From: Alphaproteobacteria bacterium
GTDB taxonomy: Bacteria > Pseudomonadota > Alphaproteobacteria > Bin95
Length of the DNA stretch: 64,000 nt
Assembly: GCA_022826185.1 (NCBI GenBank)
Contig: JAJDVH010000153.1
Location: 5,070 to 69,069 of the forward strand
Direction of reading: 5' to 3'
In this document: piece by piece, positions 33,995 through 51,601 of the stretch
Layout of the letters: each line of letters opens with the position of its first letter
Numbering within the stretch: position 1 is the first letter of the stretch
Notes under the pieces: model-generated
Databases searched by the model: none
What the model was told of the DNA's origin: nothing
What the model saw: the letters and a program-made list of their open reading frames with translations, nothing else
Made by a program: the position numbers and the translations under genes

Positions 33995-34237
33995 ATGGCC
34001 CAGCAACTCCTCCACCTGGTTTTCGGCGGGCGGCTGGTGCACCCCGACGGAACCGAATTCGCTGACCTCGACGCTCTGGATATCGTAGGCATCTATCCCA
34101 ACTACGCCGAGGCCGCCCGGGCCTGGCGGGGCAAGGCCCAGGGCACGGTGGACGACGCGCATATGCGATATTACGTCGTACATCTGCATCGCCTGCTGGA
34201 CCCCGACAACCATGAACACACAGAGGGACATTGCTGA
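33995..34237 (+). CDS. DUF4170 domain protein
   Basis: 80 aa (MAQQLLHLVFGGRLVHPDG…IVGIYPNYAEAARAWRGKAQ…MRYYVVHLHRL), a small family conserved in alphaproteobacteria. Confidence 0.6.
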   Translation: MAQQLLHLVFGGRLVHPDGTEFADLDALDIVGIYPNYAEAARAWRGKAQGTVDDAHMRYYVVHLHRLLDPDNHEHTEGHC

Positions 34238-35883: not shown

Positions 35884-35986
35884 AGAAGGGCTTTCAGCCT
35901 CCGCCGGGGGAACGCTCGTTGAAGCCGCGCTCCCGCTGTTCTAGCGTGCAGCGGCGCAGGTTCGAGGCCCGAGGGGGGAAGCCGGC

Positions 35987-38107
35987 ATGAGCATCCGCAT
36001 CGAGACGCTCGACGCATTCTTCAATCCGAAGTCGGTGGCCATTATCGGCGCTTCTTCCAACTTCACGAAGATCGGCGGCCGGCCCGTCCACAACATGAAG
36101 ATCTCCGGCTATGGCGGCGAGGTCTATCCGGTCAATCCGGGCGCTGCCGAAATCCAGGGCCTGCCGGCTTTCCCCGCTATGGCCGACATTCCGGGGCCGG
36201 TGGACATGGCGGTGATCGTCGTGCCGATGCCCGTTGTGGAACCGGCGGTGCAGGCCTGCATCGACAAGGGGGTGAAGGCCGCCATCGTGCTGTCCTCCGG
36301 TTTCGCCGAGATTTCCGAGGACGGCGCGCGCGCCCAGCGCCGCCTGGCCGATCTCGGCGCCGAGGGCGGGCTTCGCATCATGGGGCCCAACTGCATGGGC
36401 GTGATGAACACCGGCACCGGCATGATCGCCACCTTCATCTCGGCCATCGGCGATACGGGGCCTGAGAGGGGCACGATTTCCGTCGCCGCCCAGTCCGGCG
36501 CTTTCGGCGGCCATTGCTTCACGCTTGCCCGCGAACGCGGCCTCGGCCTGAACCTCTGGGCCACAATGGGCAACCAGTGCGACGTCGAGTTCTCCGACTG
36601 CCTCGCCTACATGGCGCAGGACCCCGGCACCAGCGTCGTGCTCGGCTACATGGAAGGCGTCCAGGACGCGGACAAGCTGATCGAGGCGCTCGAAATCGCC
36701 CGCGCGGCCGAGAAGCCGGTCGTGCTGATGAAGGTCGGGCGCTCCGAGGTCGGCACGGCTGCAGCGGCCTCGCACACGGCCTCGCTCACGGGCTCCGACG
36801 CCGTTTTCGATGCGCTGCTCCGCCAGTACAACGTCTATCGGCCCCACAGCATCGACGAGATGTTCGACGTCGGCTACGCCTTCGCCGGGGGCCAGCTGCC
36901 GAAGAGCGCCAGGACGGGCATCATCACGGTTTCCGGCGGCGTCGGCGTCATCATGGCCGATGCGGCGGAGGACGCCGGGCTCGAGCTGCCGCCGCTGCCC
37001 GAGGCGACGCAGGACCGGATGAAGGCGCTCGTGCCCTTCGCAGGCACCCGCAACCCGCTGGATGTGACCGCGCAGTTCATCAACGACGCGACCCTGATGG
37101 AGACCATGTACGGCGCCCTGCTGGAAGACGGCGACTATGCAAGCGCGGTCTGCTTCCTGGCGGGGGTCGGCCTGAACCCGCTGATGATGAAGGAGCTGGA
37201 GCCGAGCCTGGAGGCGGTAAGGAAGCGCTTTCCCGACCATCTGCACATGCTCGCCATCCTGACCACGCCCGAGCGCCGCGCGCGGATCCAGGAGATGGGC
37301 TACCTCTGCTACGAAGATCCGAGCCGGGCGATCCATGCGCTCGGGGTTCTGGCGCGGTATTCCGAGGCGTTGAAGCGGGGGCCTTCCGCGCAGCCGCCGG
37401 CCCTGCCGTCCGGTGCGCCGAGGCTCAGCGCCGGACTGGCCATCAACGAGATCGAAGGCAAGCGCATTCTGGCGGCCGCCGGCGTGCCGGCCGTCCCGGA
37501 GCGAATTGCAGGTTCGCCGTCGGACGCTGCCGAGGCTGCCGAGGCGGCGGGCTTCCCGGTCGTCATGAAGATCGTATCGCCGGACATCCTCCACAAGTCC
37601 GAGATCGGCGGCGTCATCCTCAATGTCGCGTCCCGGGAGGCAGCGGAGACGGCCTGCCGGGACCTGCTTGCGCGTGCCGAAGCGCATGCGCCGGACGCGC
37701 GGATCGACGGCGTGCTGGTCGCGCCGATGGTTTCGGGCGGCGTCGAGACCATTCTCGGCGTCGTCCGCGATCCGGTGTTCGGGCCGGTGGTGATGTTCGG
37801 GCTCGGCGGCATTTTCGTCGAGGTCCTGAAGGACGTGACCTTCCGCATCGCGCCGTTCGGCATCGACGAGGCGCGCCGGATGATCGGCGAGGTGCGCGGC
37901 TACCCGATGCTGCAGGGCGTCCGCGGAGCGCCGCCTGCGGACGAAGACGCGCTGGCGGAGGCGCTGGCAAGGCTTTCGGCGTTCGCGGCCGCCAATGCCG
38001 ATGTGCTTGAGACGATCGACGTCAACCCGTTCATCGTGCTGCCGAAAGGGGAGGGCGCGGTCGCCGTGGACGCGCTGATTGCCGTCCGCGACAACGCCGG
38101 CGGATGA
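35987..38107 (+). CDS. Acetate--CoA ligase family protein (ADP/NDP-forming acyl-CoA synthetase, fused alpha-beta)
   Basis: 706 aa. CoA-binding N-domain (KSVAIIGASSNFTKIGG), succinyl-CoA-synthetase-like flavodoxin domain, and a C-terminal ATP-grasp. Confidence 0.85.
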   Translation: MSIRIETLDAFFNPKSVAIIGASSNFTKIGGRPVHNMKISGYGGEVYPVNPGAAEIQGLPAFPAMADIPGPVDMAVIVVPMPVVEPAVQACIDKGVKAAIVLSSGFAEISEDGARAQRRLADLGAEGGLRIMGPNCMGVMNTGTGMIATFISAIGDTGPERGTISVAAQSGAFGGHCFTLARERGLGLNLWATMGNQCDVEFSDCLAYMAQDPGTSVVLGYMEGVQDADKLIEALEIARAAEKPVVLMKVGRSEVGTAAAASHTASLTGSDAVFDALLRQYNVYRPHSIDEMFDVGYAFAGGQLPKSARTGIITVSGGVGVIMADAAEDAGLELPPLPEATQDRMKALVPFAGTRNPLDVTAQFINDATLMETMYGALLEDGDYASAVCFLAGVGLNPLMMKELEPSLEAVRKRFPDHLHMLAILTTPERRARIQEMGYLCYEDPSRAIHALGVLARYSEALKRGPSAQPPALPSGAPRLSAGLAINEIEGKRILAAAGVPAVPERIAGSPSDAAEAAEAAGFPVVMKIVSPDILHKSEIGGVILNVASREAAETACRDLLARAEAHAPDARIDGVLVAPMVSGGVETILGVVRDPVFGPVVMFGLGGIFVEVLKDVTFRIAPFGIDEARRMIGEVRGYPMLQGVRGAPPADEDALAEALARLSAFAAANADVLETIDVNPFIVLPKGEGAVAVDALIAVRDNAGG

Positions 38108-39282
38108 GCCGCAGCCCCGTCATTGTCGGCGTAGCCGATGCGCCGACCCATGAACGGGGCCGCGCGCTGCCCGGCGCGACGGTGCTTTCCATACAGCGCG
38201 ATGCAGCCCATGAGGCGCTCGCCCAGGCAGGACTGAGGATGCGCGATGTGGACGGTCTCGCTGTCGCCGGCATGTGGGGCATGCCGGGGCCGGGGGCCAT
38301 GCAGCCGGTCCTGCTGACGGAGTATCTGGGTCTCGAATGGCCGCGCTATCTCGACGGGACGAATATCGGCGGCGCGGCCTTCGTGCTGCATGCCGGCCGG
38401 GCGGCGGAAGCGATCCGCTCCGGCCAGGCGGAGACGGTGCTGATCGTTTACGGCTCGCTGCAGAAGAGCCAGACGGCGCGGGCGCTGGGCGGGCGCCCGG
38501 CGATGTTCTCGAACCAGTGGGACATTCCCGCAGGGCTGCCGCTGCCGGTCGGCGCCTATGCGATGGCGGCGCAGAGGCATGCCCATGTTTATGGCTCGAC
38601 CCGCGAGACCCTTGCCGAAATCGCCGTGGCGACCCGGGCCTGGGCGGCGCTCAACCCCGCCGCTGCGTTCCGCGAGCCGATGACGGTGGACGATGTGCTG
38701 GACGCGCGGATGATCGCCTCGCCGCTCGGGCGCTACGACTGCTGCCTCGTCACCGACGGCGGCGGGGCGGTGGTGATGACCACGGAGGAGCGTGCGCGCG
38801 ACCTGCGGACGCCGCCGGTCCATGTGCTGGGCCACGGCGCGTCGGCCTCGCACACGAGCATCGCGCACATGCCCGACATGGCGAAGCTCGAGGCCGCCGA
38901 GCATTCCTCGCGCCGGGCCTACGCCATGGCGGGACGGAGGCCGGCCGAGATCGACCTTGCGATGCTCTACGACAGCTTCACCATCACCGTGCTGATGACG
39001 CTGGAGGCGCTCGGGCTCTGCGGCTACGGCGAGGGCAAGGAGTTCGTCAGGGGCGGCCGGACCGGCCCCGGCGGCGCCTTTCCGGTCAACACCAATGGCG
39101 GCGGGCTCTCCTATTGCCATCCGGGCATGTACGGGCTGTTCACCATCATCGAGGCATGCCGCCAGCTCTGGGGCCTTGCGGGCGAGAGGCAGGCGGAAGG
39201 CGTGCGCACGGCGATCTGCCACGGCACGGGCGGCGTGCTCTCTTCGGGCGCGACGCTCATCCTGTCGACCGAAAACGGCTAG
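38104..39282 (+). CDS. Thiolase-family (SCP-x type) protein
   Basis: 392 aa. Paralogous in architecture to the 22858-24036 thiolase; overlaps the preceding stop. Confidence 0.8.
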   Translation: MSRSPVIVGVADAPTHERGRALPGATVLSIQRDAAHEALAQAGLRMRDVDGLAVAGMWGMPGPGAMQPVLLTEYLGLEWPRYLDGTNIGGAAFVLHAGRAAEAIRSGQAETVLIVYGSLQKSQTARALGGRPAMFSNQWDIPAGLPLPVGAYAMAAQRHAHVYGSTRETLAEIAVATRAWAALNPAAAFREPMTVDDVLDARMIASPLGRYDCCLVTDGGGAVVMTTEERARDLRTPPVHVLGHGASASHTSIAHMPDMAKLEAAEHSSRRAYAMAGRRPAEIDLAMLYDSFTITVLMTLEALGLCGYGEGKEFVRGGRTGPGGAFPVNTNGGGLSYCHPGMYGLFTIIEACRQLWGLAGERQAEGVRTAICHGTGGVLSSGATLILSTENG

Positions 39283-39292
39283 AGTCGGCCCC

Positions 39293-39700
39293 ATGACCTA
39301 CGACAAGCCGGTCCCCGCCATCGACGCCGAATCGGAGCCTTACTGGACCGGCGCGCGCGAAGGCCGCCTGATGATCCAGCGCTGCGGCAGGACCGGGCGC
39401 TGCTTTCTCTATTCGCGCCGCCTTGCGCCGGGCGCGGAGGATGCCGATATCCGGTGGATCGAGGCGAAGGGAACCGGGACCGTTTATTCCTTCACCGTCT
39501 GCCACACGCCGGCCGGGCCGGCCTTCCGGGACGAGACGCCTTATGTCGTCGCCTGCGTCGAACTGGACGAGGGCGCGCGCATCGTAAGCAACCTCGTGAC
39601 CGGGGACATCGACGCGGTCCGTATCGGCCAGCGGGTCGAGGCGTTCTTCGACAGGGTTTCCGAAGACCTGACGATCCCGAAGTTCCGCCCGGCGGGCTGA
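39293..39700 (+). CDS. Zn-ribbon/OB-fold DUF35 protein
   Basis: 135 aa with a CxxC-like ribbon (RCGRTGRCF) and an OB fold. Directly downstream of the thiolase. Confidence 0.7.
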   Translation: MTYDKPVPAIDAESEPYWTGAREGRLMIQRCGRTGRCFLYSRRLAPGAEDADIRWIEAKGTGTVYSFTVCHTPAGPAFRDETPYVVACVELDEGARIVSNLVTGDIDAVRIGQRVEAFFDRVSEDLTIPKFRPAG

Positions 39701-39707
39701 ACCCGCG

Positions 39708-40649
39708 GTGCCGAAACGCTTCTGGCATTATTTCGGCATTGTTGCCGCGGTCGCCGTCTTCGCCGCCGCCGTCTGGGCGCTGACCTGGCAGCTGCGGGAC
39801 CTGCGCTGGGACGAACTCGGCCGCCAGCTTGAAGCGATCCCGCTGCTGCGAATCCTGGCGGCCGTGGCCGCAACCTTCGCCGCCTATCTGGTGCTGGCGG
39901 CCTATGACCACACCGCGTTCCGCTATATCGGAAGGCGCATGTCCTTCGGCCGGGTCGCGTTCGTCTCCTCCATTTCCTACGCCTTCAGCCACAACCTGGG
40001 CTTCGGGGCGCTCACCGGCGGCGCGGTCCGCTTCCGCTTCTACACGGACTGGGGCGTTCCTCCCGGCGATGTCGCCCGCGTCGTCCTCTATGCCGGCATC
40101 GTCTATTACCTCTGCGCGCTTTCCGTGGGCGGCCTGCTGACGCTTCCCAATGCGGCGGTGCTGGCCGATGCGCTGGAGCTCGACGCCGGCCTCATCCGCG
40201 CCGTTGCGGCCGTCTGGGTGCTGTCCGGCGCGCTCTATGTCCTGTGGTGCCTCTGCGGCAGGCCGGTTGTGCGCGTTGGCGAGCGCGAGGTGACGCCGCC
40301 GAAAATCAAACACGGACTGATCCAGTTCTGCGTGGGCATCCTCGAATGGGTGTTCACCAGCGCCGTGCTCTACCTGGTGCTGCCGCCGGATTTCGGCATG
40401 CCCTACTGGCATTTCGTCGCCGTCTATGTGCTGGCCTACATGGCCGGCTATATCAGCCATGTGCCGGGCGGCCTCGGCGTGTTCGAGACGGTGCTGCTGG
40501 TGCTGATGCCCGAGACCGTCCCGACCCATGTCGTGGCCGCGGGCATCATCACCTACCGGGTCATCTATTTCCTTCTGCCGCTGGCCCTCGCGCTCGCCCT
40601 CTTCGGCGCCTACGAAGCCTCCCGGGGGCGCTTCTCGCGCAAGGGGTAG
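39708..40649 (+). CDS. Lysylphosphatidylglycerol-synthase-TM-domain (MprF flippase-like, UPF0104) membrane protein
   Basis: GTG start; 313 aa, about 8 TM, LPG_synthase_TM-like. Confidence 0.6.
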   Translation: MPKRFWHYFGIVAAVAVFAAAVWALTWQLRDLRWDELGRQLEAIPLLRILAAVAATFAAYLVLAAYDHTAFRYIGRRMSFGRVAFVSSISYAFSHNLGFGALTGGAVRFRFYTDWGVPPGDVARVVLYAGIVYYLCALSVGGLLTLPNAAVLADALELDAGLIRAVAAVWVLSGALYVLWCLCGRPVVRVGEREVTPPKIKHGLIQFCVGILEWVFTSAVLYLVLPPDFGMPYWHFVAVYVLAYMAGYISHVPGGLGVFETVLLVLMPETVPTHVVAAGIITYRVIYFLLPLALALALFGAYEASRGRFSRKG

Positions 40650-40718
40650 GGCGTTGTCTCGCACCGGAACGCATGTTAGCCCTTGCCGGCACCTGCACCC
40701 GGCCTCGGAGTTTTCCGA

Positions 40719-43700
40719 ATGACGGCCCGCTTCTTCGAGCGCCCGATTCTCAACTCGCCATACGAATATCCGTCGCGACATTGGGAGCTTGACGGGACCA
40801 CCCGCCAGCCGACCGACCGAATCCTCGAACGCCGTCGGGATGTCGATTTCATTACGCCCATTCCTGCGGCCAGAAAGCGGCGGAACACGCAGGAACAACT
40901 GATTCTTCACGAAACCGCGGAACGGATCGGGACGGAGAGCCAGCAATACAAGCTGGCCGAGATGATCGCCAGCATCCGCCGCCAGGTCGATATCTGGCGC
41001 GCGCTGCCGGAGGCGCAATGGCGGGTGACGCCGGAAACGGCCCGGCTGCTACGGCATTGGCGCAATCATAAATTCAACGATATCAGGCCGTTCTTCTGCC
41101 AAGTGGAGGCCGTGGAGACCGCGATCTGGCTGACGGAGGTGGCGCCGTCACAGGGAAGCGCCGGGCGAGCTTTTCTCGAAGAACTCGAAAGGGCAAACGA
41201 AGACGCGAATCCCGGCTTATCCCGGCTGGCGCTGAAACTCGCGACAGGTGCAGGCAAAACCACCGTTATGGCCATGCTCATCGCCTGGCAAACCGTCAAC
41301 GCGGTGCGCCGGCCCGGCAGCCGGCGTTTTACTCGGGGGTTCCTCGTCGTCACTCCCGGCATCACTATCAAGGACCGGCTGCGCGTGCTCCAGCCCAACG
41401 ACCCGGACAGCTACTACCGGGAGCGGGAACTGGTGCCTGCCGACATGCTCGGCGACCTCGGCAAGGCGAAGATCGTCATCACCAACTACCACGCCTTCAA
41501 GCCCAAGGAGACGATGGCGGTTTCAAGGGGCGGCCGTGCGCTCCTGCAGGGCAGGGGGCCGGATCTGCGCACGGTGGAAACCGAAGGTCGGATGGTCCAG
41601 CGCGTGGTCGAGGACCTTATGGGTCTGAGGAATATCCTCGTGCTCAATGACGAGGCGCATCACTGCTACAGGGAGAAACCCGCCGACGAAGACGACGAAG
41701 GCGTTCTCCGGGGAGAGGACCGCACCGAGGCCGAGAAGAACCGGGAAGCCGCCCGGCTCTGGATATCCGGGCTGGAGGCGGTTGACCGCAAGCTCGGCCT
41801 CGCCCGCGTGGTCGATCTTTCGGCCACACCGTTCTTCCTGCGCGGATCGGGCTATGCGGAAGGCACGCTTTTCCCCTGGACGGTGAGCGACTTCTCGCTG
41901 ATGGACGCCATCGAGTGCGGCATCGTCAAGCTGCCGCGTGTGCCGGTCGCCGACAACATTCCGGGCACCGAGATGCCGACCTTCCGTAACCTCTGGCAGC
42001 ATATCGGCAAGGACATGCCGCGAAAGGGCAGAAGCAAGGCGTCCGGGCTGGACCCGCTGCGACTTCCTACCACGCTGCAGACGGCGCTGGAGGCTCTTTA
42101 CGGCCACTACGAGGATACTTTCGGGCTATGGCAGGAACAGGGCATCGAGGTGCCGCCCTGCTTCATCGTGGTCTGCAACAACACGGCTACCTCAAAGCTG
42201 GTTTACGACTTTATTTCCGGGTTCCACCGTACAGGTCCTGACGGTTCTCAAGCGTTGGTACAGAGCCGCTTCCCGCTTTTCCGGAATTTCGACGAGTTGG
42301 GCGCTCCACTCGCCCGCCCGCATACCTTGCTGATCGACAGCACGCAGCTTGAGTCCGGGGAGGCACTGGACCGGAATTTCCGCGCTGCGGCAGCGGATGA
42401 GATCGAACGTTTCCGCCGGGAGATCGTTGAACGCACCGGTGACCGGCAGCAGGCCGAGAAGTTGTCCGATGCAGATTTGTTGCGCGAGGCGATGAACACG
42501 GTCGGCAAGGCGGGCCGGCTTGGCGGTGCGACCCGTTGCGTGGTGTCGGTTTCCATGTTGACGGAAGGCTGGGATGCCAACACTGTCACCCATGTGCTCG
42601 GCGTCCGCGCGTTCGGCACGCAGCTCCTCTGCGAGCAGGTCGTCGGCCGGGCCTTGCGCCGACAGTCATATGAGTTGAACGAAGACAAACTGTTCGACGT
42701 TGAATATGCCGACGTCCTCGGGATCCCCTTCGATTTCACCGCCGAACCTGTTGTGGCGCCGCCACAGCGGCCTCGCAAGACCGTCCAGGTCCGGGCCGTC
42801 CGCCCAGAACGCGACGGGTGCGAAATTCGCTTCCCGCGCGTAGCCGGCTATCGGATCGAACTGCCGGAGGAGCGGTTGGAAGCGGAATTCAATACGGATT
42901 CGACGCTGGAACTGACCCCCGATCTCGTCGGCCCTACGAGAACCCGAAACGAGGGTATTGTCGGTGAAGGCGTCGATCTGACGGTAGAGCGCTTGGAAGG
43001 CATGCGGTTGCGGACGATTCAGTTTCATCTCGCAAACCATCTGTTGAACACGAAGTATCGGGACTCCGGCGAGGAACCGAAATTGCACCTGTTCGGCCCG
43101 CTCAAACGGATTACGCGCGAATGGCTGGACGATCACCTCGTTTGCAGGGGCGGCACCAAGCCGGCGCAAGTGCTGTATCCCTCATTGAAGGAGGTAGCTT
43201 GCGAGCGGATCAAGCAGGCAATCGACCGGGGCAGCGCGCAGCGCAAGGCGAGAGAAGACTCAAGCGAACCTTCCATTACGGCCGTGCTCGACCCCTACAA
43301 CCCTTCCGGTTCCACGGCCCATGTCCGTTTCACCACGACGAAGCAGTCTCTCTGGACGACGAATCCCGACCGTTGCCATATCAACTATGCCGTCTATGAC
43401 AGCGGCTGGGAGGCGGAGTTCTGCCGTATCGCCGATGCCCATCCCCGCGTCCGTGCCTGGGTGAAGAACCACGGCCTCGGCCTGGAGGTGCCCTATCGGT
43501 CCGGTTCCGAGACCCGGACCTACATTCCGGACTTCATCGTCCTGGTCGATGACGGGCGCGGTGTGGATGACCCGCTTCACCTGGTCATCGAGATCAAGGG
43601 CTATCGCGGTGAGGACGCGAAGGACAAGAAAGGGACCATGGACACCTACTGGGTGCCCGGCGTGAACGCGCTCGGTGATTACGGTCGCTGGAAGTTTACG

Positions 43701-43886
43701 GAATTCACGGATGTGTATGACATGGAAGATGATTTTGCCCGCATCGTGGGGCCGGAATTCGACCGCATGGTCGGCCAATTCCGTTCGTCCACCGAAATCG
43801 AATCCAGCAGATGGCTGGCAGAGAGCGGAGGCAGCGCTCCGGACCTCGAATACATTCCCCGTCGTCGAAGTGAAGCGGCCGGATGA
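40719..43886 (+). CDS. Type III restriction enzyme Res subunit (SF2 helicase plus C-terminal PD-ExK endonuclease)
   Basis: Walker A LATGAGKTT, DEAH box VLNDEAHH, and a C-terminal PD…EIK motif (YIPDFIVLV…VIEIKG). Start at ATG 40719. Confidence 0.85.
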   Translation: MTARFFERPILNSPYEYPSRHWELDGTTRQPTDRILERRRDVDFITPIPAARKRRNTQEQLILHETAERIGTESQQYKLAEMIASIRRQVDIWRALPEAQWRVTPETARLLRHWRNHKFNDIRPFFCQVEAVETAIWLTEVAPSQGSAGRAFLEELERANEDANPGLSRLALKLATGAGKTTVMAMLIAWQTVNAVRRPGSRRFTRGFLVVTPGITIKDRLRVLQPNDPDSYYRERELVPADMLGDLGKAKIVITNYHAFKPKETMAVSRGGRALLQGRGPDLRTVETEGRMVQRVVEDLMGLRNILVLNDEAHHCYREKPADEDDEGVLRGEDRTEAEKNREAARLWISGLEAVDRKLGLARVVDLSATPFFLRGSGYAEGTLFPWTVSDFSLMDAIECGIVKLPRVPVADNIPGTEMPTFRNLWQHIGKDMPRKGRSKASGLDPLRLPTTLQTALEALYGHYEDTFGLWQEQGIEVPPCFIVVCNNTATSKLVYDFISGFHRTGPDGSQALVQSRFPLFRNFDELGAPLARPHTLLIDSTQLESGEALDRNFRAAAADEIERFRREIVERTGDRQQAEKLSDADLLREAMNTVGKAGRLGGATRCVVSVSMLTEGWDANTVTHVLGVRAFGTQLLCEQVVGRALRRQSYELNEDKLFDVEYADVLGIPFDFTAEPVVAPPQRPRKTVQVRAVRPERDGCEIRFPRVAGYRIELPEERLEAEFNTDSTLELTPDLVGPTRTRNEGIVGEGVDLTVERLEGMRLRTIQFHLANHLLNTKYRDSGEEPKLHLFGPLKRITREWLDDHLVCRGGTKPAQVLYPSLKEVACERIKQAIDRGSAQRKAREDSSEPSITAVLDPYNPSGSTAHVRFTTTKQSLWTTNPDRCHINYAVYDSGWEAEFCRIADAHPRVRAWVKNHGLGLEVPYRSGSETRTYIPDFIVLVDDGRGVDDPLHLVIEIKGYRGEDAKDKKGTMDTYWVPGVNALGDYGRWKFTEFTDVYDMEDDFARIVGPEFDRMVGQFRSSTEIESSRWLAESGGSAPDLEYIPRRRSEAAG

Positions 43887-44254
43887 TTCTGGTGGATACG
43901 GTGGTGTGGATCGATCATCTGCGCGGTACCGAGCCTCATCTTGAGGAGATGTTGGACGCCGGTAACGTGGTGATGCATGCCATGATTCTCGGTGAGCTTG
44001 CGTGCGGCAACATTCCGAAGCGAGCAGAATTTCTGCAACGAATGCAGGATCTGCCGAATATCCGCGAGTGCACTCATGTCGATGTCATGTCCATGATTGA
44101 AACGAACGGGCTTATGCGCAGGGGAATCGGCTTTGTGGACGCGCATCTTCTTTGTTCAGTTCTCGAGCACGCTGGCATGACGCTCTGGACACGGGACCGA
44201 AAATTGAAGCGGATGGCGGAGACCCTTGGAGTTTCCTATGTGGAAAATGCTTAA
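43883..44254 (+). CDS. Orphan PIN-domain ribonuclease (VapC-like) embedded between res and mod
   Basis: 123 aa (MILVDTVVWIDHL…GFVDAHL…TRD) with PIN acidic residues. ATGA overlap with the res stop, no cognate antitoxin ORF. GC about 52% against a background of about 67%. Confidence 0.7.
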   Translation: MILVDTVVWIDHLRGTEPHLEEMLDAGNVVMHAMILGELACGNIPKRAEFLQRMQDLPNIRECTHVDVMSMIETNGLMRRGIGFVDAHLLCSVLEHAGMTLWTRDRKLKRMAETLGVSYVENA

Positions 44255-44355
44255 CGAGGCTGTTGGGGGCGAAATGCGACGTCCGGACACGAAGACAGTG
44301 CGTGCGGGGAGTTCCCGCTCGATGGCCTCCCTGCGCTTTGCCGGAAACGGTTGAT

Positions 44356-47151
44356 ATGGCGCGCCGCAGCAGGAAGACGCCGAAATCCGTCGAGACCCTC
44401 ACCCACGGCGAGGCGTCCAGGCGGAACATTCCGACGGCGGAGTTCCATCCCGTCATGGCGGAGGAGGAGAAGGCGCCGCGCCCGGTGGTCTATGAGCGCA
44501 ACCGGGACCTCGATCCGCAGCTTGTCTGGCGCGGGAAGGAGGCGCAGGACGCGGCGGACCTCACCGTGCAGGCGCCGCCGCTCTACATCCAGGAGAAGGT
44601 GCATCCCAAGGCGCTGGTAGACGACCTGCTGCGGCAGACGAAGGCGCGCCGCGACGAGGAGGCGGAGGCGGCGCCGGACCTGTTCGCCGATTTCAACGGC
44701 CTGCCGGACGAGGACGCGCGCACGGAGTTCTACCGCCACGACGCCAACTGGTCGAACCGCATGATCCTGGGCGACAGCCTGCAGGTGATGGCGAGCCTTG
44801 CCGAGCGCGAGGGCCTGCGCGGCAGGGTGCAATGCATCTATATCGACCCGCCCTACGGCATCCGCTTCAACTCCAACTTCCAGTGGTCCACCACCAGCCG
44901 CGACGTGAAGGACGGCAATGCCGCCCACATCACCCGCGAGCCGGAGCAGGTGAAAGCCTTCCGCGACACCTGGCGCGACGGCATCCACTCCTATCTGACT
45001 TATCTCCGCGACCGGCTGACGGTGGCGCGGGAACTGTTGACGGAAAGCGGCTCGGTCTTCGTGCAGATCGGGGACGAGAACGTTCACCGGGTCCGGGCGT
45101 TGATGGATGAGGTGTTTGGGGACAAAAATTTCGTGTCAGTAATCACCTTAAAGAAGACAGCAGTTCAGACTGATTTAGCGCTACCCAGTGTTTCAGATTA
45201 CATCATATGGTTCTGTAAGGATATAAATTCAATAAAGTATCGACAAGTATACCTTTCGAAAGGTATAGGAGATCCGGGATCCGAACAATACAAATTAATT
45301 CGAATAGAGGGAGGTCATTTCAGACGGATAAAGGATCAATCTAGCTATACAATTCACGAGCTATGCCGACCAGATAACCTAACGTCTAGTCACGAATACA
45401 GTAGAGGTCGAGAAATTATCGAGTTTCGGGGGCGTCAATTTTCTCCAGGTAATCGCTATTGGTCAACGAGCCCGGAATCTATCCAACGTCTGGAGAAAGC
45501 AGATCGTCTACACGCGGGAACAGGGCGATCCTTGAGCCACGTTAGGTTCCTTAGCGACTTTTCGATTATGCCACTTTTGAATATCTGGACTGATACAGGC
45601 ACAGGCGGTTACGGAGACGAAAAATACTATGTGGTACAAACTACCTCAAAAATTATTCAACGCTGCGTTCTGATGACCACCGACCCCGGCGATCTCGTGC
45701 TGGACCCGACCTGCGGCTCTGGCACCACTGCATATTGCGCAGAGCAGTGGGGCCGGCGATGGATCACCATCGACACCTCCCGCGTGGCGCTCGCGCTGGC
45801 GCGGGCGCGGGTCATGGGCGCGCGCTATCCCTGGTATCTGCTGGCCGACAGCCCGGAGGGGCAGCGCAAGGAGGCCGAGATTATCCGCCGTGCTCCCTCG
45901 GAAACGCCGACTGGCGGCAATATCCGACAGGGCTTCGTCTATGAGCGCGTGCCGCATATCACGCTGCGCAGCATCGCCAACAATGCCGAGATCGACGTGA
46001 TCTGGGAGAAGTGGGAAGAGCGGCTGGCGGCGCTCCGTGGCCAGTTGTCAGTGACCGGTGGCCAGGAAGAAACTCTCGAAGAATGGGAAGTCCCGCGCGA
46101 GCGTCCCGACCACTGGCCACCGGCCACCGACTCCTTGCTCGCCGAATTCTGGGAGCTTCGCATAGCCCGGCAGAAGGAGATCGACGCCTCCATCGCCGCC
46201 AGGGCCGATACCGAATATCTCTACGACAAGCCCTATGAGGACCGGTCCCGCATCCGCGTCGCCGGCCCCTTCACGGTCGAGAGCCTGGCGCCGCACCGGA
46301 TGCTGGCCGTCGACGAAGACGACGAGCTGTTCTCCACCCTCGGCGAAAAGGGCCGCACCTATGGCGAAGCGCCCGACTTCGCGGAGATGATCCTGGAGAA
46401 CCTGAAAACCTCTGGCGTTCAGCAGGCGCATAGGGAGGATCGGATTGCCTTCTCCTCCCTCGCGCCCTGGCCGGGCGACGGCTATATCTGCGGCGAGGGC
46501 CGCTACGAGGAGGCGGACGGCAAGCCGCGCCGCGCCGGCATCTTCATCGGCCCGGAATTCGGCACCGTCTCGCGCCCCGACCTCTCCGCCGCTGCCCGCG
46601 AGGCGGCCGAAGCCGGCTTCGACGTGCTCATCGCCTGCGCCTTCAGCTACGACGCCCATGCCAGCGAGTTCGAGCGGCTGGGCCGCATCCCCGTCCTCAA
46701 GGCGCGCATGAACGCCGACCTGCACATGGCCGACGATCTGAAGAACACGGGCAAGGGCAATCTCTTCGTCATCTTCGGCGAGCCCGACATCGATATCCTG
46801 GACGAAGGCGGCGACGAAATCAGGGTCAGGATCAACGGCGTGGACGTGTTTCACCCGAATTCCGGCGAGGTGCGCAGCGACGGGCCGGACGGCATTGCCT
46901 GCTGGTTCGTGGACACGGACTACAACGAGGAGAGCTTCTTCGTCCGCCACGCTTATTTCCTGGGCGCCAACGACCCCTACAAGGCGCTCAGGACGACGCT
47001 CAGGGCAGAGATCGACGAGGACGCCTGGGCCACGCTCAACAGCGACACCTCGCGCCCGTTCCCGCGCCCGGCCTCCGGCCGCATCGCCGTCAAGGTCATC
47101 AACCATCTGGGCGACGAGGCGATGAAGGTGTTTCGAGTGGATAGTGGCTAG
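44356..47151 (+). CDS. Type III restriction-modification Mod subunit (beta-class N6-adenine/N4-cytosine DNA methyltransferase) with a long C-terminal extension
   Basis: Motif IV DPPY (IYIDPPYGIRF) precedes motif I (DPTCGSGTT), with a variable region between. 931 aa. Start at ATG 44356. Confidence 0.85.
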   Translation: MARRSRKTPKSVETLTHGEASRRNIPTAEFHPVMAEEEKAPRPVVYERNRDLDPQLVWRGKEAQDAADLTVQAPPLYIQEKVHPKALVDDLLRQTKARRDEEAEAAPDLFADFNGLPDEDARTEFYRHDANWSNRMILGDSLQVMASLAEREGLRGRVQCIYIDPPYGIRFNSNFQWSTTSRDVKDGNAAHITREPEQVKAFRDTWRDGIHSYLTYLRDRLTVARELLTESGSVFVQIGDENVHRVRALMDEVFGDKNFVSVITLKKTAVQTDLALPSVSDYIIWFCKDINSIKYRQVYLSKGIGDPGSEQYKLIRIEGGHFRRIKDQSSYTIHELCRPDNLTSSHEYSRGREIIEFRGRQFSPGNRYWSTSPESIQRLEKADRLHAGTGRSLSHVRFLSDFSIMPLLNIWTDTGTGGYGDEKYYVVQTTSKIIQRCVLMTTDPGDLVLDPTCGSGTTAYCAEQWGRRWITIDTSRVALALARARVMGARYPWYLLADSPEGQRKEAEIIRRAPSETPTGGNIRQGFVYERVPHITLRSIANNAEIDVIWEKWEERLAALRGQLSVTGGQEETLEEWEVPRERPDHWPPATDSLLAEFWELRIARQKEIDASIAARADTEYLYDKPYEDRSRIRVAGPFTVESLAPHRMLAVDEDDELFSTLGEKGRTYGEAPDFAEMILENLKTSGVQQAHREDRIAFSSLAPWPGDGYICGEGRYEEADGKPRRAGIFIGPEFGTVSRPDLSAAAREAAEAGFDVLIACAFSYDAHASEFERLGRIPVLKARMNADLHMADDLKNTGKGNLFVIFGEPDIDILDEGGDEIRVRINGVDVFHPNSGEVRSDGPDGIACWFVDTDYNEESFFVRHAYFLGANDPYKALRTTLRAEIDEDAWATLNSDTSRPFPRPASGRIAVKVINHLGDEAMKVFRVDSG

Positions 47152-47267
47152 TGGCCGGTGGCCAGTGGATAGTGAATGGTAGATAGTGGATAACGGTTGC
47201 AGGCGGGCCTCGGCCGGACTATCCACTAGCCACTGACCACTAGCCACTGACCACTGGCGGCCGCCTC
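47134..47267. repeat. Palindromic heptamer-repeat element, copy 1 (full inverted repeat). Left arm is about seven NNAGTGG heptamers; right arm is five CCACTNN heptamers plus GGCGGCCGCC
   Basis: gagtggatagtggctagtggccggtggccagtggatagtga… loop gttgcaggcgggcctcggccggac …tatccactagccactgaccactagccactgaccactggcggccgcc. The left arm overlaps the mod stop; the right arm ends 2 nt before the ATG at 47268. Confidence 0.8.
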
Positions 47268-47519
47268 ATGGAAACCTGGATTACGCCGGCGCTGGTCGTC
47301 GCGCTGGCCGCGCTCATGATCGGTATGATCCGCTCGCTGCGCAGCGATCTGGAACAGCGCATCGACAGGGTCGAACAACGAATGGATCGCCTGGAGACCG
47401 GCCAGGTCGAGTTGAAGGAAGGTGTAGCCGAAGTGCGGGGAGAACTGAGGTTTGTCCGCGACTACATTCTTCGGCGCAACATGCCGATGGAAGAGCCGCC
47501 GGCTGCGCCAGCGGAATAG
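47268..47519 (+). CDS. Small membrane-anchored coiled-coil protein (hypothetical; DUF1640-like architecture)
   Basis: 83 aa with an N-terminal TM (ITPALVVALAALMIGMI) and then a heptad coiled coil (LEQRIDRVEQRMDRLETGQVELKEG). Flanked by two copies of the heptamer-repeat element. Confidence 0.5.
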   Translation: METWITPALVVALAALMIGMIRSLRSDLEQRIDRVEQRMDRLETGQVELKEGVAEVRGELRFVRDYILRRNMPMEEPPAAPAE

Positions 47520-47523
47520 GCCA

Positions 47524-47605
47524 ATGGCTGGTGGATAGCAGTTGCAGGCCGGCTTCGGCCGGACTATCCACTAGCCACTGACCACTAACCACTGGCGGCC
47601 GCCCC
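47524..47605. repeat. Palindromic heptamer-repeat element, copy 2 (short left arm, same loop and right arm)
   Basis: ggctggtggatagca gttgcaggccggcttcggccggac tatccactagccactgaccactaaccactggcggccgcc cc ATG; about 90% identical to the right half of copy 1. Confidence 0.8.
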
Positions 47606-48787
47606 ATGGACCTCAATTTCGCCCCTGAAGACGAAGCCTTTCGCGACGAGTGCCGTTCCTTCCTGGCCGAGACGCTGCCGGGCGATGTGGCGCGCAAGGT
47701 CGGGCTCGGCATCCAGCCGACGCTGGCCGAGACGATGGCGTGGCACAGGGCGCTTTACGACAAGGGCTGGGTCGCGCCGAATTGGCCGACCGAATGGGGC
47801 GGGCCCGGCTGGACCGTGACGCAGAAATACATCTGGGACGAGGAGCAGGCGCTCGCCAATGCGCCGCGCCCGATCCCCTTCGGCCTTTCCATGTGCGGGC
47901 CGGTGCTGATGGCCTTCGGCACCGAGGAGCAGAAGCGGGACAACCTGCCGCGCATCCTCTCCGGCGAGCGCATCTACTGCCAGGGCTATTCCGAGCCCGG
48001 CGCCGGCTCCGACCTCGCCGCGCTCAAGACCCGCTGCGAGGTGCATGACGACCGCCTCGTCATCAACGGCCAGAAGATCTGGACGACGGCGGCCCACTGG
48101 GCGAACTGGATTTTCTGCCTCGTGCGGACATCCTCGGAAGGCAAGCGGCAGGAGGGCATCTCCTTCATCCTGATCGACATGGCCACGCCCGGCATCGAGG
48201 TGAAGCCGCTCATCACCATCGACGGCCTGCACGAGGTCAACGAGGTGTTCTTCACCGATGTCGTCGTGCCGCGCGAGAACCTCGTGGGCGAGGTGGACCA
48301 GGGCTGGACGATCGCCAAATACCTGCTGGGCCATGAGCGCATGGGCGGCGGGGCGCTGGGTAGCCAGAAGAATGGCCTGCGCTCGCTCAAGGAGATTGCG
48401 GCGGACCAGGGGCTGGAGGAGGACGCGACCTTCATGCGCAAGGTGGCGGAGGTCGAGATCGAGCTCCAGACGCTGGAAATGCAGATGCTCCGCATGCTCG
48501 CCGCCGTCTCGGCGGACAAGGAGATCGGCGCCGAGTCGTCGATGATCAAGATACGCCGGACGGAGATCCAGCAGCGCCTCTCCGAGCTCAAGATGGAGGC
48601 GGCGGGCTACGACGCGGGTCCCTACCAGATCGAGGCCATGGAGCATGGCTGGAACGAGGAGCCGGTCGGCCCCGACTACGCCAACGCGCTCGCGGCGAAA
48701 TATTTCAACGACCGCAAGCACACGATCTTCGCCGGCTCCAACGAGATCCAGCGCAACATCATCTCGAAGCGGGTGCTGGGCCTTTGA
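47606..48787 (+). CDS. Acyl-CoA dehydrogenase family protein
   Basis: 393 aa with ACAD N, middle, and C domains (…YSEPGAGSDLAAL…). Start is immediately after repeat copy 2. Confidence 0.85.
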   Translation: MDLNFAPEDEAFRDECRSFLAETLPGDVARKVGLGIQPTLAETMAWHRALYDKGWVAPNWPTEWGGPGWTVTQKYIWDEEQALANAPRPIPFGLSMCGPVLMAFGTEEQKRDNLPRILSGERIYCQGYSEPGAGSDLAALKTRCEVHDDRLVINGQKIWTTAAHWANWIFCLVRTSSEGKRQEGISFILIDMATPGIEVKPLITIDGLHEVNEVFFTDVVVPRENLVGEVDQGWTIAKYLLGHERMGGGALGSQKNGLRSLKEIAADQGLEEDATFMRKVAEVEIELQTLEMQMLRMLAAVSADKEIGAESSMIKIRRTEIQQRLSELKMEAAGYDAGPYQIEAMEHGWNEEPVGPDYANALAAKYFNDRKHTIFAGSNEIQRNIISKRVLGL

Positions 48788-48920
48788 GGCGGCCTCGTCC
48801 CGCAAGCCTGCCGGACTTGTTCCACTGCCGTCCGGTTGGCGTCCTCCTCGCCGCCCCGGCCCCGAGCCCTGTCGGCTTCACACATCTGTGGCGTCGGCAT
48901 AGCGTCGCACCGCCCATAAC

Positions 48921-49047
48921 CGTCACCCCGGACTTGATCCGGGGTCCAACTCCGGTTCTCGCGGCGGCCCCGGCGGTTGGACATGCTCTCCACCGGTGGC
49001 AGGCGCAGGCGGTCAGGGATGGACCCCGGATCAAGTCCGGGGTGACG
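48921..49047. repeat. REP-like element: two inverted 27-nt hairpin units cgtcaccccggacttgatccggggtcc … ggaccccggatcaagtccggggtgacg
   Basis: Perfect 27-nt inverted repeat separated by about 73 nt. Each arm is itself a CCCCGG/CCGGGG hairpin. Intergenic between the ACAD and E1-alpha genes. Confidence 0.8.
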
Positions 49048-49083
49048 GAAGGGGGTGTCCGGGCATGACAGGAGACGGCTGAC

Positions 49084-50088
49084 ATGAGCGGCTCCCGGCC
49101 CAATCTTGACCTCGAACGGCTGGCGGACCGGCATCGGCGGATGCACCGCATCCGCGCCTTCGAGGAGCAGGCCGTCGCTGCGCTGCAGGAAGGGCTGGTG
49201 TTGGGCGCCATACACCCCTCCATCGGGCAGGAGGCCTGTGCGGTGGGCGCGGTCGGGAGCCTCGCGCGCGAGGACCTGCTGCTCTCGACTCATCGCGGCC
49301 ACGGCCACACGCTGGAGAAGGGCGCCTCCGCGGTTGCGATGATGCGCGAGCTGTTCGGGCGCGAAGGCGGCAATTGCGGCGGCAAGGGCGGCTCCATGCA
49401 CATCGCCGACTTCTCGGTCGGGATGCTGGGCGCGAACGGGGTCGTCGGCGCCAACATCAACATCGCCGCAGGTGCTGCCCACGCGGTGCGGCTCAAGGGC
49501 GAGCGGCGCATCGTCTGTTGCATCTTCGGCGACTGCGCGGTCAATCGCGGACCTTTCCTGGAGGGGCTGAACTGGGCGCGGGTCTTCGACCTGCCGGTGC
49601 TGTTCGTCTGCGAGGACAACGCCTTCGCCGCCACCACCCGGACCGAGGCGATGACCGGCGGCCCCGGCCCGGCGGCGCGCGCCGAGGCGCTGGGGATTCC
49701 GGCCCGGGCCGTGGACGGCAACGATGTGGACCTCGTGGCGGAGGTGACGACGGAGCTGCGCGGGCGGATCCTCGACGGCGGCGGCCCGCAATTCCTCTGG
49801 GCGAAGACCTGGCGGCTGACGGGCCACACGGCCGTGGACAAGGCCGCCTACCGCGATGCCGGGGAGGTCGAGGAGCGCTGGAAGGACGACCCGATCGCCC
49901 GCGCCGCGGAGACCTTGCGGGCGCATGGCGTCGCCGATGAGACGCTTGCCGGCCACCGGGAAGCCGCCGTCGGGGAGATGCAGGCTGCCTTCGAGGAGGC
50001 GAAGGCCGCGCCCTGGCCGGAAGACGGTGCGCTCTACGCCGACGTGCAGGATATCGGCGACCCGCGCGAGGCGGCGTTCCGATGGTGA
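49084..50088 (+). CDS. TPP-dependent 2-oxoacid dehydrogenase E1 component, alpha subunit (pyruvate/acetoin dehydrogenase-like)
   Basis: 334 aa with a TPP-binding motif (GDCAVNRG…N). Confidence 0.85.
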   Translation: MSGSRPNLDLERLADRHRRMHRIRAFEEQAVAALQEGLVLGAIHPSIGQEACAVGAVGSLAREDLLLSTHRGHGHTLEKGASAVAMMRELFGREGGNCGGKGGSMHIADFSVGMLGANGVVGANINIAAGAAHAVRLKGERRIVCCIFGDCAVNRGPFLEGLNWARVFDLPVLFVCEDNAFAATTRTEAMTGGPGPAARAEALGIPARAVDGNDVDLVAEVTTELRGRILDGGGPQFLWAKTWRLTGHTAVDKAAYRDAGEVEERWKDDPIARAAETLRAHGVADETLAGHREAAVGEMQAAFEEAKAAPWPEDGALYADVQDIGDPREAAFRW

Positions 50089-51050
50089 AGACGAGCTACA
50101 TGGAAGCCGGCAAGCGGGCGCTGGCCGAGGAGATGCGCCGCGACCCGACGGTGTGGGCGGTCGGCGAGGACCTCGGGCGCGGCGGCGTGTTCGGGCAGTA
50201 TGCCGGCATGGTCGAGGAATTCGGCCCGCTCCGGATTTCGGACGCGCCGATTTCAGAGGCGGCGATCCTCGGCTCCGCCGTCGGCGCGGCGCTGGCGGGG
50301 ACGCGCCCGGTGGTGGAGATGCGCTTCGCCGACTTCGCGCTCTGCGCCGTGGACGAGCTGGTGAACCAGGCGGCCAAGGCCCGCTACATGTTCGGCGGGC
50401 AGGGCGGCGTGCCGCTTGTGGTGCGCGAGCCGATGGGCATGTGGCGGTCCTCCGCCGCGCAGCACTCGCAGTCGCTGGAAGCCTGGTATGTGCATATTCC
50501 GGGCCTGACGGTGGTCGCCCCGGCGACGCCGGGGGACAATCTGCGCCTGCTGAAGGCGGCGATCCGCAGCGACGATCCGGTGGTCTATATGGAGCACAAG
50601 GACCTGTGGGGGATCGAGGAGGAGCTCGGCGAGGACGAGCCGCCGGGCGCGCTCGGCAGCGCGCGGATCGTCCGGGAAGGCGATGACGCCACGGTGGTCT
50701 CATGGTCTGCCATGGTTCGCAATGCCGCCGCTGCGGCCGAGCAGCTGGCCGAGGAAGGCGTGTCGGTGGAGGTGATCGACCTGCGCACGCTCTGGCCCTG
50801 GGACCGCGGCGCGGTGCTGGAGTCCGTGCGCAGGACCGGACGGCTGGTCGTGGCGCAGGAGGCGGTCTCGGTGGGCGGTTTCGGAGCCGAGGTCGCTGCG
50901 ACCGTCTCGGAGGCGCATTTCGGCAACCTGAAAGCGCCCGTGAAGCGCCTCGGCGCGCCGCGCATCCCGATTCCCTATGCAAAGCCGCTCGAAGACATGC
51001 TGCGCGTGGGCCCGGACGCGATTGCGGACGCGGTTCGCGCGCAGTTGTGA
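50082..51050 (+). CDS. 2-oxoacid dehydrogenase E1 component, beta subunit (transketolase-like)
   Basis: 322 aa. Overlaps the alpha-subunit stop. Confidence 0.85.
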   Translation: MVKTSYMEAGKRALAEEMRRDPTVWAVGEDLGRGGVFGQYAGMVEEFGPLRISDAPISEAAILGSAVGAALAGTRPVVEMRFADFALCAVDELVNQAAKARYMFGGQGGVPLVVREPMGMWRSSAAQHSQSLEAWYVHIPGLTVVAPATPGDNLRLLKAAIRSDDPVVYMEHKDLWGIEEELGEDEPPGALGSARIVREGDDATVVSWSAMVRNAAAAAEQLAEEGVSVEVIDLRTLWPWDRGAVLESVRRTGRLVVAQEAVSVGGFGAEVAATVSEAHFGNLKAPVKRLGAPRIPIPYAKPLEDMLRVGPDAIADAVRAQL

Positions 51051-51076
51051 GCTTTTTTCCAAGAGGACTTGAAGCG

Positions 51077-51583
51077 ATGACCGATTGGCAGGAGGACCTT
51101 TACCGGGTCCTCAAGGAGTTCGAGGTCAGCCAGGTGAGCTATGTGCCGGATGCCGGCCACCGGGTGCTGATCGACATGTCGCTAGCCGACCCGGAGGTGC
51201 ATTCCGTGCCGCTGACGACGGAGGAAGAGGGCATCGCCATGCTGGCCGGCGCCCATCTGGGCGGCGCGCGCGGCGTCGCGGCCATGCAGTCCTCGGGCAT
51301 CGGCAATTGCGTCAACATGTTCTCGCTGGTGAAGAACGGCCTGTTCCCGATGCTGGTGCTGGTGTCGATGCGCGGCGACTTCGGCGAGGGCAATCCCTGG
51401 CAGATGCCGATGGGGCAGGCGGTCGAGCCGGTGATGGAGGCGATGGGCTTCATCACCGTGCGGATCGACCGGCCCGAGGATGTCGAGGGCGCAATGCGGG
51501 CGGCCTGCACCATGGTGTTCAAGTCGGGGCAGGCGGTGGGCGTGCTTCTCACCCAGAAATTGATCGGTGCAAAAGCATTTTAA
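51077..51583 (+). CDS. Sulfopyruvate/phosphonopyruvate decarboxylase-like alpha subunit (ComD-like TPP-enzyme N-terminal half)
   Basis: 168 aa, start at ATG 51077. Pyr-binding domain of split TPP decarboxylases. Confidence 0.6.
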   Translation: MTDWQEDLYRVLKEFEVSQVSYVPDAGHRVLIDMSLADPEVHSVPLTTEEEGIAMLAGAHLGGARGVAAMQSSGIGNCVNMFSLVKNGLFPMLVLVSMRGDFGEGNPWQMPMGQAVEPVMEAMGFITVRIDRPEDVEGAMRAACTMVFKSGQAVGVLLTQKLIGAKAF

Positions 51584-51601
51584 GCGAGGGAAATTGAAGC
51601 G

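Follow-up and report, generated by a model that had tools for sequence, protein, structure and literature searches.

A VapB-like segment at the C-terminus of a Type III-like restriction subunit as a candidate antitoxin for an embedded PIN toxin

How can a VapC-type PIN-domain toxin be kept in check when it is encoded between the two subunits of a restriction-modification (R-M) system and no antitoxin gene lies next to it? The question is raised by a locus in a stretch of 64,000 nucleotides (referred to as the window) from an alphaproteobacterial genome assembly (contig JAJDVH010000153.1), in which an open reading frame (ORF) reading places three genes on the + strand in the order res, PIN, mod. 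A first-pass annotation of the DNA had described the locus as a horizontally acquired Type III R-M island of unusual gene order with an antitoxin-less PIN nuclease between its subunits. The ORFs, their coordinates and the ATGA overlap between res and PIN stand as given there (Table 1), and identical gene calls, including the res start, are obtained on two metagenome scaffolds that are 100% identical to the window (KELL22-1). Likewise, matches to Pfam, NCBIfam and PADLOC bear out that the R-M pair is Type III-like and that the gene between its subunits encodes a VapC-type PIN. Other parts of that description have to be revised. We consider it likely that the locus is a three-gene hybrid of a Type III-like R-M system and a VapBC toxin-antitoxin (TA) pair, in which the restriction subunit would have taken over the job of the antitoxin.

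The evidence for this reading starts at the C-terminus of the restriction subunit. Res matches the NCBIfam equivalog NF046055 (BPTD_3080 family restriction endonuclease) with 1307 bits, the profile spanning residues 6-1008 only; the residues beyond it were flagged by none of Pfam, NCBIfam and PADLOC. The 120 closest Res clusters (71-100% identity) comprise 86 that end approximately 30 aa after a WxFxEFxD motif, 25 with a tail of the form ..WLAxAGGSxPDLEYIPRRRSE.. and 9 with a fused MNT nucleotidyltransferase domain. A counterpart of the tail is found next to free-standing relatives of the PIN protein. Nearly all of 80 such relatives (42-51% identity; the best 80 loci of a metagenome scan) are preceded by an antitoxin of about 65 aa with an overlapping junction, the antitoxin stop ending 3 nt past the PIN start in most pairs. 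These free antitoxins are PF09957 VapB proteins (60-62 bits), for example MRTTLNIDDQLLDEARRLTGMTEKATLVREGLRALIERESARRLARLGGSEPQLESVPRRQSDPA, and usually end in ...ERESARRLARLGGSEPQLxPIPRRRS. Plasmid counterparts of the pairs in cultured bacteria carry the NCBI annotation VapB/VapC.

A hidden Markov model (HMM) built from 65 free-standing PF09957 antitoxins alone was searched against six-frame segments of the window. There is one significant match, residues 1026-1053 of Res (EIESSRWLAESGGSAPDLEYIPRRRSEA, E=6e-7; next best E=2.2), to which positions 37-64 of the 65 model positions align; the ribbon-helix-helix (RHH) half of the antitoxin, positions 1-36, is absent. Tail-bearing Res proteins score up to 26 bits at the extreme C-terminus, tail-less ones at most 2.3 bits. 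Chance similarity is ruled out by the E-value and specificity of the HMM, by the co-occurrence of tail and PIN gene, and by two independent parallels (see below). The Res tail is thus almost certainly derived from VapB, and the PIN gene can no longer be called antitoxin-less, as a segment homologous to the toxin-binding part of VapB is fused to the Res C-terminus. The first-pass annotation had also suggested looking for a cryptic antitoxin upstream of the PIN gene in all frames. No separate antitoxin ORF was found near the PIN gene: the small overlapping and flanking ORFs (43675-43944 and 44226-44354 on the + strand, 43679-44146 and 44112-44456 on the - strand) are all without Pfam match, and in the six-frame search the tail remains the sole match of the HMM.

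What such a segment could do is suggested by the closest solved relatives of both partners, VapBC11 (6a7v) and VapBC15 (4chg) of M. tuberculosis. In VapB11, residues 1-40 constitute the DNA-binding RHH domain and residues 41-63 make all toxin contacts: a helix occupies a lateral site of the toxin, and beyond a Gly-x-Pro hinge the terminal segment lies at the active site (PMC6265470). Peptides from this toxin-binding region inhibit the RNase by themselves (PMC6265470). The Res tail has three matching elements, EIESSRWLAES, GGSAP and DLEYIPRRRSE, which by analogy would form the lateral-site helix, the G-x-P hinge and an arginine-rich segment reaching the active site. We infer that the tail binds and silences the PIN protein, and regard such neutralisation as quite probable. 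An AlphaFold2 (AF2) model of Res residues 861-1055 has a mean predicted local distance difference test (pLDDT) score of 47, too poor to be read.

The putative target of the tail is, by sequence criteria, an intact and functional toxin under purifying selection. The PIN protein belongs to Pfam PF01850, and NCBIfam VapC models match it below their cut-offs; a PADLOC match to PDC-M11A (E=0.004) was too weak and was not used. Four acidic residues, D5, E38, D86 and D105, are invariant in 32 PIN homologues and align with the catalytic residues of VapC11, as expected of a VapBC-type toxin; a lack of catalytic Asp residues, which the first-pass annotation had named as an observation that would speak against its reading, is therefore not found. 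The AF2 model (pLDDT 94.7) has VapC11 (6a7v) as its best match in the PDB (template-modelling score 0.79), and VapC15 (4chg) is matched as well. The ratio of nonsynonymous to synonymous substitution rates (dN/dS) is 0.04 relative to the closest copy, which is 98% identical and lies on a contig with 94.6% DNA identity to the window, and 0.13-0.30 relative to distant homologues. Invariant catalytic residues and dN/dS values of 0.04-0.30 together argue that the PIN gene is not decaying.

The arrangement is not restricted to the window. The PIN protein has thousands of relatives, and the six homologues that were looked up (98, 63, 61, 56, 55 and 50% identity) all occur in the order res, PIN, mod with the same 4-nt overlap. 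The sole cognate PIN gene in the genome sample (locus L084, 48% identity) shows the same order and overlap, so that the arrangement, whose recurrence the first-pass annotation had proposed to check, is found in 7 of 7 PIN loci. Since it recurs with the same overlap in all homologues looked up, the arrangement is not due to chance. A translational link between PIN and res, as first proposed, is probable. An ATGA overlap of res and PIN is also seen in L001, L003, L171 and L177. In a neighbour-joining tree, the 8 PINs verified as Res-linked group with 113 of the 114 remaining top matches in one clade, to the exclusion of all 71 free-standing relatives; identity within this clade falls to 45%. A large clade of its own, together with the invariant catalytic residues and the low dN/dS, disposes of the suggestion that the gene is a decayed TA remnant, and a third component of the defence module, the other option raised for the PIN gene at first sight, is the best reading.

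Tail and toxin also occur together. The tail, with its motif conserved, is present on Res in 7 of 7 distinct Res-linked PIN loci. In a toxin-blind genome sample, 76 Res proteins were scored for a PF09957-like tail, which was detected in three (L084, L026 and L085). The cognate PIN gene, or its first four codons, follows two of these three tailed Res; among the 73 Res without a tail there is no such case (Fisher p=0.001). L084 has the tail and an intact cognate PIN gene. In L026 (11100-11930) the tail is intact and the cognate PIN gene is cut to its first four codons, ATGATTCTGGTC (MILV), followed by REP-like hairpin repeats and then by a complete antitoxin-PIN pair of another subfamily; this locus is a snapshot of cassette turnover. 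L085 has the tail and a BrnT-like gene in place of the cognate PIN. An antitoxin segment that outlives its toxin, never the reverse, is what TA logic predicts.

Two further fusions provide the parallels mentioned above. MNT proteins are the antitoxins of HepT/MNT systems. For Res proteins with a fused MNT domain, a HepT gene was predicted beforehand to follow, and in both of the two loci examined it does so immediately, followed by mod. An unfused MNT+HepT pair lies in the res-mod junction of L179. Several MNT-fused Res keep the first half of a VapB-like tail before the MNT domain (e.g. ..RSFTEIEAGKRLGGTG..), which suggests replacement of a cassette inside an older tail. The second parallel is L059, whose Res ends in KELLASCPIDGEYLVRPREFPRDIDF, a FitA-like tail, and overlaps a PIN gene of another subfamily; relatives of this PIN in L048 and L027 are accompanied by free antitoxins ending in KEMLASCPVDLDLDRPRDFGRAVET and KELLASCPVDLDLDRSRDLGRDIEI. 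The PIN of L059 is truncated and the locus is decaying. As judged from these sequences, fusion of an antitoxin to Res has arisen at least three times with different antitoxins, namely a VapB tail, an MNT domain and a FitA-like tail.

The R-M pair in which these fusions take place is Type III-like. Res contains a Walker A motif (GAGKT, aa 177-181), a DEAH box (aa 311-314) and a PDF...EIK motif (PD...ExK, aa 937-960); motifs and profiles identify it as a superfamily 2 (SF2) helicase/ATPase with a C-terminal PD-(D/E)xK nuclease, as in classical Type III Res. In Pfam it matches ResIII (PF04851), and RE_endonuc below its cut-off; the closest named relative is from an Alphaproteobacteria metagenome-assembled genome (75% identity). 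Mod matches PF01555 with 104 bits and the PADLOC model MTase_III (PDLC03632) with 1326 bits over its full length. Motif IV (DPPY, aa 164) precedes motif I (DPTCGSGTT, about aa 430), and the protein qualifies as a beta-class N6A/N4C methyltransferase with its own variable, presumably target-recognising, region. The two-gene composition, the PF01555 Mod with an internal variable region and the helicase-nuclease architecture of Res are shared with EcoP1I and EcoP15I. The locus differs from these prototypes by a weak match of Res to the Type III restriction endonuclease models of PADLOC (REase_III) and by its gene order. Mod is also about 290 aa longer than the Mod of EcoP15I. We know of no biochemical work on the BPTD_3080 family.

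With respect to gene order, an alignment of Res homologues was scanned against one genome per species, resulting in more than 600 matches, of which the best 80 loci were analysed. These loci (65-75% identity) are found in Proteobacteria, Chloroflexota, Nitrospirota, Planctomycetota, Acidobacteriota, Latescibacterota, Cyanobacteria and other phyla. Res and mod genes can both be seen in 69 species loci, always on a common strand and with res upstream. The order res-mod, first taken to be unusual, is therefore the norm of the BPTD_3080 family, a family-wide variant that departs from the mod-res operons of EcoP1I and EcoP15I.

The junction between res and mod is a frequent site of additional genes. 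The two genes abut in about 23 of the 69 loci and enclose inserts in 46, with a gap of up to 5.5 kb, and the cargo often begins with a 4-nt overlap on the res stop. It includes Bro-N/ORF6N, Fic, GmrSD, deaminase-HATPase_c_4, DUF1016/YhcG nucleases, NYN proteins and AAA ATPases, as well as DUF4258/DUF2283 pairs, MNT+HepT pairs, PINs and free TA pairs. A recurrent uncharacterised pair consists of a protein of about 156 aa and a DUF1828 protein (L007, L167 and L179; DUF1828 alone in L034) and may be a candidate defence system. In L003, L004 and L005 a HicB-HicA pair (6434-6840) is located between the Res-linked PIN and mod, resulting in two stacked toxin modules. The junction of L027 (11450-16930) holds a 5.5-kb insert, and its Res reading frame is disrupted; the insert contains two reverse-transcriptase-like ORFs (YADD/YCDD motifs, by motif reading resembling the reverse transcriptases of group II introns), a transposase-like ORF and a FitA-like antitoxin remnant. 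A third recurrent C-terminal extension of Res, ..PPAAGIAATTLVEPSAAPIHR/G, exceeds the plain form by about 15 aa and is carried by P0149, P0162, P0176, P0185, P0192 and others; it is also present in L179, where it precedes a 158-aa + DUF1828 pair and the free MNT+HepT pair.

Locus L167 allows for a comparison at a single chromosomal site. It stems from the same sampling campaign as the window and has the same flanking genes: a thiamine pyrophosphate (TPP) enzyme, a CoA ligase, a thiolase, a ChsH2-like OB protein and an LPG-synthase-like membrane protein upstream, and an acyl-CoA dehydrogenase downstream. The two sequences share 85% nt identity over 34711-43729 (to approximately Res aa 1004), cannot be aligned from there to 44350, at the mod start, after which they are 93% identical, diverge again at 45122-45658, and then align to the end. 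In place of the tail and PIN of the window, L167 carries MNT+HepT and four more small genes. The divergent centre of mod, which lies between motifs IV and I, has a GC content of about 53% and is flanked by sequence aligning at 85-93% on both sides; it is presumably a swapped target-recognition domain. The swap would therefore confer a different methylation specificity on close relatives, and the divergence looks like such a case. The R-M system is as old as its flanks in the two lineages, and the parts that were exchanged are the junction cassette and the specificity region.

These observations bear on the claim of a horizontally acquired island. The spread over many phyla at 65-75% identity and a GC content below that of the flanks speak for acquisition (res 0.62, PIN 0.53, mod 0.617; flanks 0.665 and 0.688); the PIN value had first been put at about 52%, close to the measured figure, and the lower GC of the island as a whole is confirmed. 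The presence of the R-M system at the same site in L167, between the same flanks and with flank-level divergence (85% nt), speaks against a recent event. No tRNA gene occurs within the window, no integrase adjoins res-mod, whose neighbours are metabolic genes, and no direct repeats were found to bracket the stretch from res to mod. A recent insertion of the whole R-M system is thus unsupported. Even so, the patchy spread over phyla shows mobility of the family over longer periods.

The origin of the locus can be pictured as follows. An ancestral vapBC cassette would have resided within the res-mod junction, and an in-frame fusion would have removed the RHH half of the antitoxin, attached the toxin-binding C-terminal half to the Res C-terminus and left the ATGA junction of vapB and vapC in its original form. 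PIN would then be made by termination-reinitiation directly after each full-length Res and be bound 1:1 by the Res tail, its RNase active site occluded in the way VapB11 residues 41-63 occlude that of VapC11. Because the DNA-binding domain is absent, TA-type autoregulation would not be expected, and neutralisation would depend on the presence and integrity of Res. If Res were removed, truncated, degraded or sequestered, the VapC RNase would be freed and might cleave tRNA or rRNA, resulting in growth arrest. Candidate triggers are a phage anti-restriction factor, a shut-off of host synthesis, and loss or frameshift of res. Since the toxin would be freed whenever Res is lost or disabled, PIN could serve as a guard of the restriction enzyme (an abortive-infection backup), as an addiction lock against res loss, or as both. 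We put forward the guard or sensor function of the Res-PIN pair tentatively, as a possibility that currently falls short of being probable.

The same holds for a more general proposal, which we offer as speculation: the family may have repeatedly captured antitoxins at the Res C-terminus, such that Res would act as a sensor-antitoxin that releases VapC or HepT, and the junction would be a slot for exchangeable guard cassettes. A phage that disables Res, or the loss or truncation of res, would then release the toxin and lead to an aborted infection or to the death of the defector cell. Close relatives would exchange guard cassettes by recombining within the conserved 3' end of res and 5' end of mod.

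Several observations weigh against the hybrid reading. The match of the tail is a short one of 28 aa and 20 bits, and tails persist without their cognate PIN in L026 and L085, hence the presence of a tail is no proof of current function. Many unrelated cargo genes share the junction, and position alone is no proof of functional coupling. Classical type II logic requires a labile antitoxin, and translational coupling is deduced solely from the ATGA overlap and a weak Shine-Dalgarno sequence. A rival reading is that of a passenger: PIN and antitoxin remnant may be a selfish or defence cassette, fused to Res by an accident that happens to leave the toxin neutralised, and linked to restriction by co-expression alone, with PIN acting as an ordinary TA or abortive-infection module or stabilising the locus. 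The junction is indeed a hotspot of unrelated cargo, and genes are known to become embedded in defence operons quite generally (bioRxiv 10.1101/2024.01.29.577857). We nonetheless consider a mere passenger unlikely, as the fusion of antitoxins to Res occurred at least three times with different antitoxins, and the VapB-tail form has persisted throughout a deep clade, in which PIN identity falls to 45%; this recurrence suggests that the fusion itself has been selected.

The tail might also be a tether that brings an active PIN to the restriction complex on foreign DNA, where the nuclease would attack phage transcripts or nucleic-acid structures and spare the host. HEPN RNases have repeatedly been fused to endonuclease or helicase subunits of R-M systems, which was read as functional cooperation (PMC3710099), and PIN would be produced in step with Res. 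What was retained, however, is the very stretch with which VapB covers the active site in the solved relatives, its arginine-rich end included; in the MNT-HepT parallel, the antitoxin is of an enzyme type known to inactivate HepT, and the free PIN relatives are annotated as classical TA toxins, all of which makes a recruited accessory nuclease highly unlikely. That the PIN is truly solitary, or a functionless remnant of a TA pair, is scarcely credible. Such a view can draw on the lack of a separate antitoxin ORF and on decay elsewhere in the family (the truncated PIN of L059, the four PIN codons of L026), but the PIN of the window is of full length, has its four acidic residues and a dN/dS of 0.04 relative to the 98%-identical copy, and the toxin-binding segment of an antitoxin is present on Res.

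Compared with known systems, the hybrid combines familiar parts. It shares with VapBC (PF09957/PF01850; VapBC11 6a7v and VapBC15 4chg) the PIN fold with its catalytic quartet, the overlap of stop and start codon, and the antitoxin C-terminal motif RESARRLAxLGGSEPxLxxIPRRR, which is common to the Res tail; a further example of such a pair is found on a plasmid of Aromatoleum aromaticum EbN1 (WP_020686163.1/WP_041647774.1). It differs from VapBC in that a separate, upstream, DNA-binding antitoxin gene is missing, together with the RHH half for DNA binding and dimerisation and presumably with TA autoregulation; the peptide here is the C-terminus of a 1055-aa restriction subunit. The HepT-MntA system resembles sister Res proteins of the family that have a C-terminal MNT domain followed by a HepT gene, an arrangement absent from the window itself. 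MNT, however, is an enzymatic antitoxin (MntA AMPylates HepT) and not a binding peptide.

The closest precedent for a toxin tied to a restriction enzyme is the anticodon nuclease PrrC, which is encoded in the Type Ic EcoprrI locus, silenced by the restriction enzyme and freed when the latter is inhibited, so that this 'R-M guardian' adds a second line of defence (PMC3710099, PMC12707154). Here as there, a toxin gene lies inside an R-M operon, and the guard logic is proposed by analogy. PrrC, on the other hand, is of the ABC-ATPase-HEPN type, and the contacts by which a Type I complex masks it are undefined, whereas the present toxin is a VapC PIN, its putative mask is a recognisable antitoxin peptide on a Type III-like Res, and activation by anti-restriction is conjectural. 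HEPN toxins fused to restriction endonucleases or helicases, and the analogy to PrrC, were described in 2013 (PMC3710099). Matelska et al. (2017) reported PIN genes adjoining subunits of Type I R-M systems 'with antitoxin elements missing', a lack that puzzled them, stating that a direct interaction of TA and R-M was not shown and that the arrangements are not conserved (PMC5499597). Defence genes embedded in Hma, BREX, DISARM and Type I R-M systems were collected by Payne et al. under the term 'guilt by embedding' (2024 preprint; bioRxiv 10.1101/2024.01.29.577857); the present locus likewise has a toxin gene nested between R-M subunits, here in a Type III-like family. In contrast to both surveys, the arrangement described here is conserved, belongs to a Type III-like family and has a specific link, the fused antitoxin segment. 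Within the incomplete coverage of a full-text literature search, no account of a Res subunit with a fused antitoxin came up. Toxins embedded in R-M systems and type II TA pairs are both known, and an antitoxin moiety on a restriction subunit is apparently undescribed; we do not propose a new category.

R-M and TA systems are usually treated as separate layers of immunity, PrrC-EcoprrI being the one well-studied physical link between them and nearly an isolated case. If the hybrid reading is true, it shows how, by simple molecular means, a restriction enzyme could be guarded against phage anti-restriction or res loss, and it explains a class of apparently orphan toxins. Software for finding TA and defence systems would then miss such cases, as Pfam, NCBIfam and PADLOC missed the tail. 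The tail/PIN and MNT/HepT alleles, which naturally replace each other at a single chromosomal site of related genomes, constitute ready-made experimental material.

Table 1. Features of the res-PIN-mod locus, with positions counted along the window.
Feature	Position	Strand	Basis and remarks
res	40719-43886	+	1055 aa from ATG; NCBIfam NF046055, Pfam ResIII and RE_endonuc, motifs
Res C-terminal extension, aa 1009-1055	43743-43883	+	beyond the family profile; most close homologues without extension
VapB-derived predicted toxin-binding peptide on Res, aa 1026-1053	43794-43877	+	HMM of free PF09957 antitoxins
ATGA, PIN start overlapping the res stop (TGA)	43883-43886	+	sequence reading
PIN-domain VapC-type toxin gene, 123 aa	43883-44254	+	Pfam PF01850
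PIN-mod spacer, 101 nt	44255-44355	.	similarity to the syntenic relative L167 resumes at 44350
mod, 931-aa beta-class N6/N4 DNA methyltransferase	44356-47151	+	PADLOC MTase_III PDLC03632; Pfam PF01555
mod variable low-GC centre, presumed target-recognition domain	45122-45658	+	unalignable with L167; GC profile

A scan of 40400-47700 for promoters and terminators gave none above shuffled expectation and is uninformative for an organism of 66% GC; in the same scan the + strand of the spacers yielded nothing, the PIN-mod spacer having neither a sigma-70-like promoter nor a terminator that could be detected. The R-M set is located among genes of a lipid- or steroid-type catabolism (34000-40650 and 47600-52200), which encode a TPP enzyme, an acyl-CoA ligase-like protein, a thiolase, a ChsH2-like OB-fold protein, an acyl-CoA dehydrogenase and E1 dehydrogenase subunits; the surroundings constitute no recognisable defence island or mobile element. 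A palindrome at the mod stop (47136-47255) has 38-nt arms made up of GTGGATA/GTGGCTA/GTGGCCA heptamers. Close to it, an ORF for a coiled-coil-like protein of 83 aa (47268-47519) lies between the two copies of a 64-nt direct repeat (47186-47249 and 47531-47594), which are 92% identical. The entire unit (47136-47604) looks like a small insertion or duplication, because positions 47288-47540 of the window are absent from the syntenic relative L167.

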